Source: Pseudomonas aeruginosa
GTDB lineage: Bacteria > Pseudomonadota > Gammaproteobacteria > Pseudomonadales > Pseudomonadaceae
Assembly: GCF_001457615.1 (NCBI RefSeq)
Contig: NZ_LN831024.1
Coordinates: 5,820,001-5,852,000 of the forward strand
Length of the DNA stretch: 32,000 nucleotides
Direction: 5' to 3'
Shown here: one piece after another, positions 2,830-27,945 of the stretch
Layout of the letters: every line of letters starts with the position of its first letter
How positions within the stretch are numbered: position 1 is the stretch's first letter
The notes under the pieces: generated by a model
The model's input: only the letters and a program-made list of their open reading frames with translations
Databases searched by the model: none
Told to the model about the DNA's origin: nothing
Translations under genes and position numbers: made by a program

Positions 2830-4260
<1,431 letters not shown>

Positions 4261-4286
4261 AGCGCCACTGCTCCCATGAGCGACCC

Positions 4287-4312
4287 AACGGGGCCTTCGG
4301 GCCCCGTTTTTT
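4287..4312 (+). terminator. Rho-independent terminator of ntrBC
   Basis: Perfect 9-bp stem aacggggcc/ggccccgtt with a ttcg loop, followed by a T-run (4307-4312). Confidence 0.85.
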
Positions 4313-4403
4313 AATGGTCCGTCGCGCGCCCGTGCCAAGCGAGACGCCGCCCCGGCCTCGGCAGAGCGCCCGCTCGGCACCGTCGATCAAACCGTGGCGT
4401 AGG

Positions 4404-4431
4404 GCGAATAACCGCATCGCGGTTATCCGCC
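4404..4431. repeat. REP-type palindromic element (GGATAACCGC family)
   Basis: gcgaATAACCGCatcGCGGTTATccgcc is an imperfect palindrome. It belongs to the same sequence family as the elements at 9016-9044 and 9063-9087. Confidence 0.7.
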
Positions 4432-4676
4432 GGTTCGGCGGGGCAGCGGCCCTTGCCCGGATTTTGGGCAGCGTGCACCAGCAGGCGACAAATCGGCATC
4501 AATCGCTGGCGGAAAAGCCCGCTCCGTCATTTTTCCGCAATCGACTTCCCACAAACCCCTGGGATGCCGCCAAGCCCTTGATCCACGGGCCTCCAGAGGC
4601 ATTCATCACCAGCTCGCCCACAGACTTATCCACAACCTTTCAGGAAAGCGAGCGCGCCGCCAGCGTCTCATGAGAA

Positions 4677-4693
4677 TTGGCACAGCCCCTGCA
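4677..4693 (+). promoter_or_regulatory. Sigma-54 (RpoN) promoter of the downstream sRNA
   Basis: TTGGCACagcccCTGCA has GG at 4679-4680 and GC at 4691-4692 with 10-nt spacing. This is a near-consensus match to YTGGCACGR-N3-TTGCW. The predicted start is near 4704. Confidence 0.8.
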
Positions 4694-4704
4694 TTGGAGC
4701 AGAT

Positions 4705-4930
4705 AACGAAGATTTCGGGGGCCTCGGTACAGGCAGGCTGGGGAATCCCCTCTTTTACACCCGGCGGCAGACGCAGCATCCGCGCGCAACCGCCACACCC
4801 GTTTCGGGGACCTCGGTACAGGCAGGCTGAGAACTCCCCTCTTTTATGCCCGGCGGCAGCGCAGCGATCCGCGCCTCCGCCCTCCCGTTTGGGGACCTCG
4901 GTACAGGCAGGCTGAGAATTCCCCCTTTTA
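4705..4930 (+). ncRNA. nrsZ: Nitrogen-regulated small RNA with three repeated stem-loops (NrsZ-type)
   Basis: The region has no credible ORF and lies directly downstream of an RpoN promoter. It contains three homologous hairpin + U-run modules. Its position after ntrC and its approximately 226-nt span match my recollection of NrsZ in PAO1. The 5' and 3' ends are estimated from the promoter geometry and the last U-run. Confidence 0.7.
4713..4930 (+). repeat. Three tandem copies of a 43-45 nt stem-loop module (periods 89 and 86 bp)
   Basis: Copies lie at 4713-4757, 4802-4846 and 4888-4930: TTT(C)GGGG(G/A)CCTCGGTACAGGCAGGCTG(G/A)G(G/A)A(A/T)(T/C)CCCC(T/C)(C/T)TTTTA. The spacers are also homologous to each other (CCCGGCGGCAG..GCAGC(A/G)ATCCGCGC). 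Confidence 0.95.
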
Positions 4931-5407
4931 TTCCCGGCCGTCGCGCTCCTGCAGTTCGACGACCAGGCGCCAGCCCTCGCCGTCCTCCGACCACTGCCAG
5001 CGCCCCTGCAAGGGGCGGGTCGAGACCAGGCTCAACAGCAGCGCCTTTCCCTCCTCGCGGACGCGCCAGCGCAACGGTTGGCCCAGCCATCGTCCATCTC
5101 CCTGCTGCGCCGCGCCCCGGGCGACGATGCGCAACGTCAGGGCACCCTCCACCCGTGCCGCCGTAACCGCAGCCTGGCGATCGAAGCGCAGGACCAGGCC
5201 CTGCTCGCTCTCCCCGACCGCCAGCAGTTGCGGCGCAGACGTCGGCAGCGAAGCGGGACCGAACAACCTGCCGAGCATCAGCCCGAACAACAACCCGGCA
5301 AGCACCAGCGCACCCCAGACTTTCCAGCGCTGGCGCCGCAGATCGTCGATGGCGGAGGTAGAATGCCGCCCGTTATCTGCTCCGGAGCCCTGCATGTTCC
5401 ACGTCAT
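4928..5407 (-). CDS. Hypothetical single-pass membrane protein
   Basis: 159-aa ORF. An N-terminal cytoplasmic stretch is followed by a TM helix (WKVWGALVLAGLLFGLMLGRLF) and an approximately 100-aa periplasmic domain with no family I recognise. The start is ambiguous (5407 or 5395). Confidence 0.6.
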   Translation of the reverse strand: MTWNMQGSGADNGRHSTSAIDDLRRQRWKVWGALVLAGLLFGLMLGRLFGPASLPTSAPQLLAVGESEQGLVLRFDRQAAVTAARVEGALTLRIVARGAAQQGDGRWLGQPLRWRVREEGKALLLSLVSTRPLQGRWQWSEDGEGWRLVVELQERDGRE

Positions 5408-8989: not shown

Positions 8990-9015
8990 TCCGCGAACGA
9001 CGAACTCCCGCGCAG

Positions 9016-9044
9016 GGCGGATAACCGCGTCGCGGTTATCCGCC
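9016..9044. repeat. REP-type palindromic element
   Basis: GGCGGATAACCGCgtcGCGGTTATCCGCC is a near-perfect 13-bp-arm palindrome located just after the gpmI stop. Confidence 0.8.
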
Positions 9045-9062
9045 GCTTCTGCAGGCCATCGA

Positions 9063-9087
9063 CGGATAACGCCTGCGACGTTATCCG
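9063..9087. repeat. REP-type palindromic element (second copy, variant core)
   Basis: CGGATAACGcctgcgaCGTTATCCG has 9-bp arms. It lies 18 bp from the previous element and forms a REP pair with it. Confidence 0.75.
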
Positions 9088-9303
9088 CCGTAGCGGGCCG
9101 GGCGCCGCGCCCTGTTTCCACGACGCCACCTTCCCCGCTTTAACGCTGCCGATCGGCCGACAGGCCTGGCCACGCGGCGTCGAGACGTGTGCCGCGGTTT
9201 TCATTTTCCGCGTCTCCCCCCCCTGCCTCCCGCTACGTCGCCGAGGCCCGTGCTAGCCTTGCCCGCGCTGTCTTTTCCATCTGCCCTACAAGGATTTCCG
9301 CCG

Positions 9304-27869: not shown

Positions 27870-27945
27870 GCCCAGGTAGCTCAGTTGGTAGAGCAGGGGA
27901 TTGAAAATCCCCGTGTCGGCGGTTCGATTCCGTCCCTGGGCACCA
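27870..27945 (+). tRNA. tRNA-Phe (anticodon GAA), CCA encoded
   Basis: The 76-nt cloverleaf was folded by hand. The acceptor stem is gcccagg/cctgggc, the D-arm gctc/gagc, and the anticodon stem gggga/tcccc with loop ttGAAaa. The T-arm is ggcgg-ttcgatt-ccgtc, and the molecule ends in a 3' CCA. Confidence 0.95.

Follow-up and report, generated by a model that had tools for sequence, protein, structure and literature searches.

The gap between ntrC and PA5126 in a Pseudomonas aeruginosa strain carries nrsZ, a known sigma-54-driven RNA gene with three tandem hairpin modules

What, if anything, is encoded in the 667-bp gap between ntrC and the next, convergent gene of Pseudomonas aeruginosa? We addressed this question in a 32-kb stretch of P. 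aeruginosa contig NZ_LN831024.1 (positions 5,820,001 to 5,852,000; hereafter, the window), where the gap spans 4261–4927: the ntrC stop codon ends at 4260, and the stop codon of the gene on the other side, an orthologue of PA5126, begins at 4928. An earlier inspection of the bare DNA letters (the sequence-only reading) had found no credible open reading frame (ORF) in the gap and had proposed that it holds an NrsZ-type small RNA (sRNA). The first statement stands, since Pfam returned no match for any of the ORFs that cross the gap (4044–4673 and 4670–4915 on the + strand; 4755–5090, 4208–4417, and 4311–4502 on the − strand). The second can be made much more precise. The region is almost certainly the nrsZ gene of P. 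aeruginosa, and this is the best explanation of the data, the mechanism proposed below included. The gene is already known, as the sequence-only reading had suspected, and the feature is hence not new.

The identification rests on four lines of evidence. When the whole window was scanned with the Rfam NrsZ family, RF02695, a comparison that the sequence-only reading had suggested, positions 4705–4940 of the + strand matched with 278.6 bits (E = 1.2e-74), above the family gathering score of 76.9 bits. The match is full-length (model positions 1–236 of 236). The second line is the promoter. The box TGGCACAGCCCCTGCA, with GG at 4679–4680 and GC at 4691–4692 separated by 10 nt, has the position and spacing that had been claimed for it and is identical, letter for letter, to the published PAO1 nrsZ box, whose mutation (GG to AA/GC to TT) abolishes both NrsZ transcripts (Wenner et al. 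2014, PMC4253122). It is the sole intergenic match to TGGCAC-N5-TTGCW (1 mismatch) that adjoins the repeats; the number of sigma-54 motifs in the window, 21 observed versus 16 expected, is not above chance. The third line concerns the RNA ends. In PAO1, transcription is predicted to start (+1) 12 nt downstream of the box, and the 3′ end was placed at A226 (PMC4253122). Since the two boxes are identical, we set +1 at 4705, which is also where the RF02695 model begins. With this start, the processed forms detected in PAO1 by RNA sequencing (RNA-seq) and 3′ rapid amplification of cDNA ends, nt 9–52, 98–142, and 184–226 (PMC4253122), map to 4713–4756, 4802–4846, and 4888–4930, and the sequences at the published processing ends are the same in the window and in PAO1. 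Last, ntrC upstream together with convergent PA5126 downstream is the published arrangement of P. aeruginosa nrsZ. With a full-length family match, an identical promoter, coordinates agreeing within 1 nt, and NtrC and PA5126 as neighbors, the assignment to an NrsZ-type locus is borne out. The features of the gene are as follows (R1 is a single-module covariance model).

4678..4693, + strand: sigma-54 (RpoN) promoter, −24 GG/−12 GC, TGGCACAGCCCCTGCA
4705..4930, + strand: NrsZ primary transcript, at least 226 nt, from the RF02695 match and the published ends
4713..4756, + strand: module SL I, functional hairpin of ~44 nt with loop ACAGGCAG; nt 9–52; −17.5 kcal/mol; R1 68.5 bits
4757..4801, + strand: spacer hairpin 1; −16.1 kcal/mol, z = −2.5; paired in the Rfam consensus
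4802..4846, + strand: module SL II; nt 98–142; −16.3 kcal/mol; R1 66.9 bits
4847..4887, + strand: spacer hairpin 2; −17.6 kcal/mol; paired in the Rfam consensus
4888..4930, + strand: module SL III, with its 3′ end at the PA5126 stop codon; nt 184–226; −15.7 kcal/mol; R1 63.3 bits

NrsZ has been described since 2013/2014, is present in Rfam, and is treated in reviews, and its recognition here adds little to annotation. The check does show that reading raw sequence can recognize a known RNA gene with its exact boundaries.

The internal architecture of the RNA was examined next. A repeat search returned three direct copies, starting at 4713, 4802, and 4887 (start spacing of 89 and 85 nt) and lying within 1 nt of the published ends, in agreement with the three tandem modules that had been described. 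The 19-mer CCTCGGTACAGGCAGGCTG is identical across the modules, and each is followed by a short U-run, C(T)TTTTA. Folded on its own, each module forms the expected GGGG...CCCC-closed hairpin (−15.7 to −17.5 kcal/mol), in which an outer GGGG/CCCC helix, a bulge, and an inner 6-bp helix lead to an 8-nt ACAGGCAG loop. The two spacers align with 78% identity (36 of 46 columns), and none of 1000 shuffles reached the alignment score. The invariant core with its U-run, the closing helix, and the homology of the spacers had thus all been read correctly. The further claim that the whole unit was triplicated holds for the modules only: Tandem Repeats Finder reports a period of 89, 2.6 copies, 88% matches, and a score of 325, which corresponds to two full spacers and not to a clean triplication. 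With the R1 model, exactly three matches were obtained in the window, all of them at nrsZ.

Our analysis covers the identity of NrsZ, its promoter, its modules, the conserved hairpin, and the neighboring genes; for the dependence on NtrC and RpoN, the processing, and the effects on rhlA, rhamnolipid, and swarming, we rely on published work with PAO1. In that strain, NtrBC/RpoN induction of NrsZ was demonstrated by Northern blotting and lacZ fusions: both NrsZ species vanish in the ΔrpoN, ΔntrC, and promoter-box mutants, and a fusion carrying the −309 to +1 region is induced by nitrate or nitrogen starvation (PMC4253122). The spacer hairpins of PAO1 NrsZ are reported to be degraded after processing (PMC4253122). 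Its first 60 nt restore swarming, rhamnolipid production, and rhlA′-′lacZ translation, and a GG-to-CC change in the loop abolishes NrsZ activity (PMC4253122).

Combining these data with the features of the window, we propose the following scheme. Under nitrogen limitation, phosphorylated NtrC would bind upstream of the gene, likely at or near this candidate site:

4474..4490, + strand: best candidate NtrC-binding site (upstream activating sequence), −231 from +1, TGCACCAGCAGGCGACA

Bound NtrC would activate the RpoN-RNA polymerase at the −24/−12 promoter (4678–4693). Transcription from ~4705 would then yield an RNA of at least 226 nt with five local hairpins. Ribonucleases would cut this RNA at its U-rich single-stranded joints, with removal of both spacer hairpins, and three equivalent hairpins of ~44 nt (4713–4756, 4802–4846, and 4888–4930), each showing the ACAGGCAG loop, would accumulate. 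One hairpin should be enough to activate rhlA translation and hence rhamnolipid production and swarming, as in PAO1. The loop may pair with GUUUGCCUGU in the rhlA leader and open a structure that hides the ribosome-binding site. Of these steps, we infer the NtrC site, the identity of the nuclease, and the direct base pairing with rhlA; a 2021 review repeats the rhlA pairing model without new data. NrsZ resembles other processed sRNAs in that the abundant active species arises only once the primary transcript has been cut. It differs from those that give a single 3′ fragment, since it gives three equivalent copies of the regulator from a tandem array.

Several observations speak against this picture. 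The z-scores of single-module folds range from −1.2 to −1.6, not significantly better than shuffled sequence, and when the 236-nt RNA is folded as a whole, its minimum-energy structure is not the modular one (z = +0.24). Even the best candidate for an NtrC site in the window is weak: TGCACCAGCAGGCGACA agrees with TGCACC-N5-GGTGCA at 9 of 12 positions and has one good half-site. A relaxed scan of the window for GCACC-N6-GGTGC with up to 3 mismatches gave 258 matches versus 318 expected. The expression evidence comes from PAO1, which is a different strain, and rhlA lies outside the window. A gel shift with NrsZ and rhlA was negative and the leader mutant was ambiguous, and the authors call the mechanism unknown (PMC4253122). 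Moreover, conservation of nrsZ extends to species and genomic settings in which rhlA is a doubtful target.

Given the weak thermodynamic support, the case for the structure is built on sequence comparison and the Rfam covariance model. Two sets of homologues were used. The first was collected by NtrC homology with one genome per species; the matches listed were mostly non-Pseudomonas, included at least three Pseudomonadaceae loci, and did not include P. aeruginosa itself. The second was collected from metagenome contigs with a DNA pattern composed of the promoter and the loop, and 80 of its 86 stretches were analyzed. Together, 83 loci yielded 170 modules, 90 of them distinct; 89 of these were aligned without gaps in MAFFT, and their pairing in the hairpin was scored. 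Standard pairs were found in 96.0% of cells, compared to 70–72% when the 3′ partner was slid by one column. The inner helix was paired in 99.1%, and two-sided changes, such as C-G to U-A or G-C to A-U, were seen at 5 of the 11 pairs. None of 500 column shuffles reached the observed covariation score. The retrieval pattern had fixed the loop core, whose constancy therefore carries no independent weight; it placed no constraint on the stems and flanks. In the set retrieved on the CAGGCAG core, 3 of 90 distinct modules differ in the loop, and solely in its first two positions. The promoter and the modules are also present in L001 (two modules) and L003 (one module), two loci that were reached by NtrC homology alone. 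The distance from promoter to loop was 33 nt in three loci measured by hand, and the loop offset was 49–53 nt in all 83. Overall, the comparative data provide independent support for the NrsZ hairpin.

The same data define the range of the RNA. At E ≤ 1, the R1 model detected no module in the other 78 ntrC loci among the matches listed. These loci, which served as an outgroup, comprise 77 with names other than Pseudomonas and one from a Pseudomonadaceae metagenome-assembled genome (MAG). In this sample, NrsZ RNA is confined to the Pseudomonas lineage. In L003, a record named P. putida GM4FR, the single module at 4758–4806 scored 74.6 bits with R1 and was not reported by RF02695 at the gathering score. 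L001 passed narrowly, with 83.8 versus 76.9 bits. The three-module Rfam model therefore under-detects short orthologues, as seen in one missed single-module case (L003).

Because the relaxed scan for NtrC sites was uninformative, we replaced it with a spacer-specific comparison of upstream regions, which covered 300 nt ahead of the promoter in each of 74 distinct loci. Scored against TGCACC-N5-GGTGCA, the best site per locus averaged 9.28 of 12 positions versus 7.87 in shuffles, while the same half-sites with a 4- or 6-nt spacer gave background values (7.97 and 8.14). Pairs of NtrC-type sites 13–20 nt apart occur in many loci. This enrichment would agree with NtrC control across the family.

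What the released hairpins act on is the substantive question that is left, both as to their mode of action and as to a conserved target outside P. aeruginosa. There is a real chance, which we put somewhat short of even, that rhlA activation is a species-specific side role and that the ancestral job of NrsZ under nitrogen limitation is to pair with another mRNA, one common to all pseudomonads, or to bind a protein. The loop is near-fixed while the stem, copy number, spacers, and neighbors change, and some loci stand beside nap-type nitrate-reductase genes or have no ntrC nearby; both observations are compatible with this possibility. Within the window, a search for the loop complement CTGCCTGT gave matches solely in the modules themselves.

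A different explanation, which we consider unlikely, is that the modules serve mainly as decoys that titrate an RNA-binding protein, in the manner of RsmY/RsmZ/CsrB with RsmA/CsrA or of CrcZ with Hfq, and that the effect on rhlA is indirect. NrsZ resembles these sponge RNAs in displaying one exposed sequence on repeated hairpins or motifs (1 to 7 identical-loop hairpins per locus), and CrcZ, like NrsZ, is RpoN-dependent. The loop GUACAGGCAGGC agrees at 9 of 12 positions with RUACARGGAUGU, the CsrA consensus from systematic evolution of ligands by exponential enrichment (SELEX). However, the loop reads GGC and thus lacks the GGA core required by RsmA/CsrA, and it has no A-rich Hfq motif either. 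NrsZ also differs from the sponges in that no protein partner was found and its units are released as separate molecules. The decoy explanation keeps a minority place because the rhlA pairing is unproven and NrsZ is listed among the Hfq-associated sRNAs recovered by Hfq cross-linking and immunoprecipitation followed by sequencing (PMC6890931). The negative gel shift with the rhlA leader fits it too, as does the finding that the leader mutation removed control in part only (PMC4253122). Conservation of NrsZ where an rhlA target is unexpected, with nrsZ genes of such species complementing the PAO1 mutant, points the same way (PMC4253122). On the other hand, the authors’ transposon screen turned up no repressor protein, a single plasmid-borne module was sufficient, and the GG-to-CC change in the loop and the CC-to-GG change in the rhlA leader both affected regulation, as base pairing predicts (PMC4253122).

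Two explanations deny that the repeats form a dedicated RNA gene. According to the first, they are dispersed palindromes of the repetitive extragenic palindromic (REP) or miniature inverted-repeat transposable element type, or a degenerate array resembling clustered regularly interspaced short palindromic repeats (CRISPR). The regular repeat-spacer layout does look superficially CRISPR-like, as the original authors remarked (PMC4253122), and 180 nt upstream, within the same intergenic spacer, there is a genuine REP-like element. This explanation is nevertheless hardly tenable: the three R1 copies in the window are all at nrsZ, the spacers, unlike those of CRISPR arrays, share 78% identity, and in all 83 loci a sigma-54 promoter is located at a near-fixed distance from the first module. 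A CRISPR array was considered as such and rejected, as the spacers are alike, a sigma-54 promoter stands at the head of the array, and ntrC and PA5126 flank it. More than 120 viral-contig matches to a 15-mer of the loop were also dismissed as chance, being partial and scoring at most 24.5 bits versus 63–75 bits for real modules. The second explanation, a small repetitive protein encoded by the 81-aa ORF 4670–4915 (+) or the 111-aa ORF 4755–5090 (−), has next to nothing in its favor beyond the mechanical existence of both frames, given that long spurious ORFs are expected at ~65% G+C, that neither ORF has a Pfam match, that the 81-aa ORF begins inside the promoter, upstream of +1, and that the variation between modules keeps base pairs and not the reading frame, with spacings that are not multiples of 3.

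Returning to nrsZ as the established identity of the locus, we compared copy number and layout among its homologues. Other pseudomonad nrsZ loci share the promoter type, the loop, the hairpin, and the U-rich flanks with the window. They differ from it in having 1 to 7 modules, in unit length (43 to 130 nt), in the absence of a spacer hairpin from some units, and in the neighborhood, as some have no ntrC upstream or lie beside nap-like genes. Module spacings of 43, 61, 71, 85, 86, 89, 109, and 110 nt were recorded across loci. The reported range is 1–6 modules, with six in P. protegens, three in P. putida, two in P. entomophila, and one in P. syringae (PMC4253122). Arrays of 4, 5, and 7 modules were seen in L144, L093, L110, L159, and other metagenome loci, and the 43-nt units of metagenome arrays have no spacer hairpin. 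The span of 1 to 7 is thus wider than the published one, and copy number possibly varies even within P. aeruginosa. In the P. aeruginosa-type locus L106 (OIFK01000001.1), whose NtrC is 100% identical over 370 aa, two modules are present through the exact loss of one 89-nt unit. This form could reflect real recombination, that is, a copy-number polymorphism, or the collapse of the repeats in a short-read assembly.

The neighborhood of nrsZ is less uniform. Among distinct loci with enough flanking sequence, NtrC is encoded within 2.3 kb upstream in 27 of 44, and a PA5126 homologue follows nrsZ in 47 of 57. PA5126 is the most constant neighbor of nrsZ, more so than ntrC. This most faithful neighbor has no known function, and a functional link between NrsZ and PA5126 is conceivable. 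Loci of the L087 type encode an 817-aa protein upstream and carry PA5126, trmL, and secB downstream; in L087, L107, L108, L115, L142, and others, the PA5126 homologue, trmL, and secB are kept and there is no ntrC within the upstream flank. In L089, the nrsZ locus is inverted relative to secB. Single-module nrsZ with the same sigma-54 promoter and with neither ntrC nor PA5126 nearby was seen in L103, L134, L081, and L140; L084, L086, L095, L109, L132, and L157 are likewise single-module loci lacking both genes nearby. In L103 and L134, nrsZ is located downstream of napABC-like genes and has its own canonical terminator, followed by a large convergent gene. In L002, a related MAG, ntrC directly faces a large gene of the L103/L134 type, with no nrsZ between them.

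In the window itself, nrsZ is framed by the following features.

2830..4260, + strand: ntrC, orthologue of PA5125, 476 aa, the response regulator that activates nrsZ (TIGR01818)
4287..4314, + strand: intrinsic terminator of ntrC; 9-bp stem with 7 G-C pairs, AACGGGGCCTTCGGGCCCCGTT, then TTTTTAATGG
4370..4529, + strand: Rfam “P33” element, a REP-like, palindrome-containing conserved block (RF02404, 198.1 bits)
4928..5395, − strand: PA5126 orthologue, 155 aa, uncharacterized, convergent (exact protein look-up)

The product of the upstream gene matched the NCBIfam model TIGR01818 (ntrC) with 805.9 bits (cutoff, 558.6). The true start of ntrC is at 2830, at MSRSETVWIVDD, and the gene is preceded by ntrB. 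The exact protein sequence is named NtrC [Pseudomonas] in the public protein collection, and both NtrC and SecB of the window are exact P. aeruginosa protein sequences. The exact PA5126 sequence occurs in the collection only as “hypothetical protein [Pseudomonas aeruginosa],” and neither Pfam nor NCBIfam places this orthologue in a family. The final 3 nt of NrsZ, as its 3′ end is mapped, fall within the PA5126 stop codon, and module III is not followed by a terminator of its own; read-through from nrsZ would therefore be antisense to PA5126.

PAO1 NrsZ shares with the window its sigma-54 box and its location between ntrC and PA5126, and it too consists of three ACAGGCAG-loop modules and two spacer hairpins. 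The window differs from PAO1 in the distance between ntrC and P33, 109 nt versus the reported 254 nt, and in PA5126, which is identical to PAO1 AAG08511.1 at 153 of 155 residues and thus differs by 2. From the PAO1-type metagenome copy L098, the NrsZ RNA of the window differs by one base, in spacer 2. Because PA5126 differs by 2 aa and the intergenic spacer has a 145-nt indel, the strain is a P. aeruginosa other than PAO1.

The P33 element was overlooked in the sequence-only reading. Its match to RF02404 is well above the gathering score of 45, and the block contains GTAGGGCGAATAACCGCATCGCGGTTATCCGCC; its fold is unremarkable (z = −0.55). In PAO1, P33 was predicted at 5,775,061–5,775,220, with distances of 254 nt to ntrC and 398 nt to PA5126, and no transcript was detected (Livny et al. 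2006, PMC1524904). P33 of the window is likewise 398 nt away from PA5126 but 109 nt away from ntrC. The P. aeruginosa-type loci L098 and L106 carry an extra 145 nt between ntrC and P33 that the window does not have (at ~4339–4340). This segment consists of a tandem copy of the first part of P33 and an inverted partner of its REP-like palindrome. It is a strain-variable indel and, judging by the published distances, is also present in PAO1. Because of the REP-like palindromes and the strain-variable 145-nt duplication, the annotated “P33 sRNA” is probably not an sRNA but a REP-type repeat or a regulatory region. It overlaps the upstream region of nrsZ, including the candidate NtrC site. At 9012–9100, just past the end of a gene, there is a further pair of REP-like palindromes, GGCGGATAACCGCGTCGCGGTTATCCGCC ... 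GACGGATAACGCCTGCGACGTTATCCGCC, which belongs to the same repeat family as the P33 palindrome. Farther along the window, a tRNA-Phe gene (anticodon GAA) was found at 27870–27945 on the + strand (Rfam tRNA, 71 bits).

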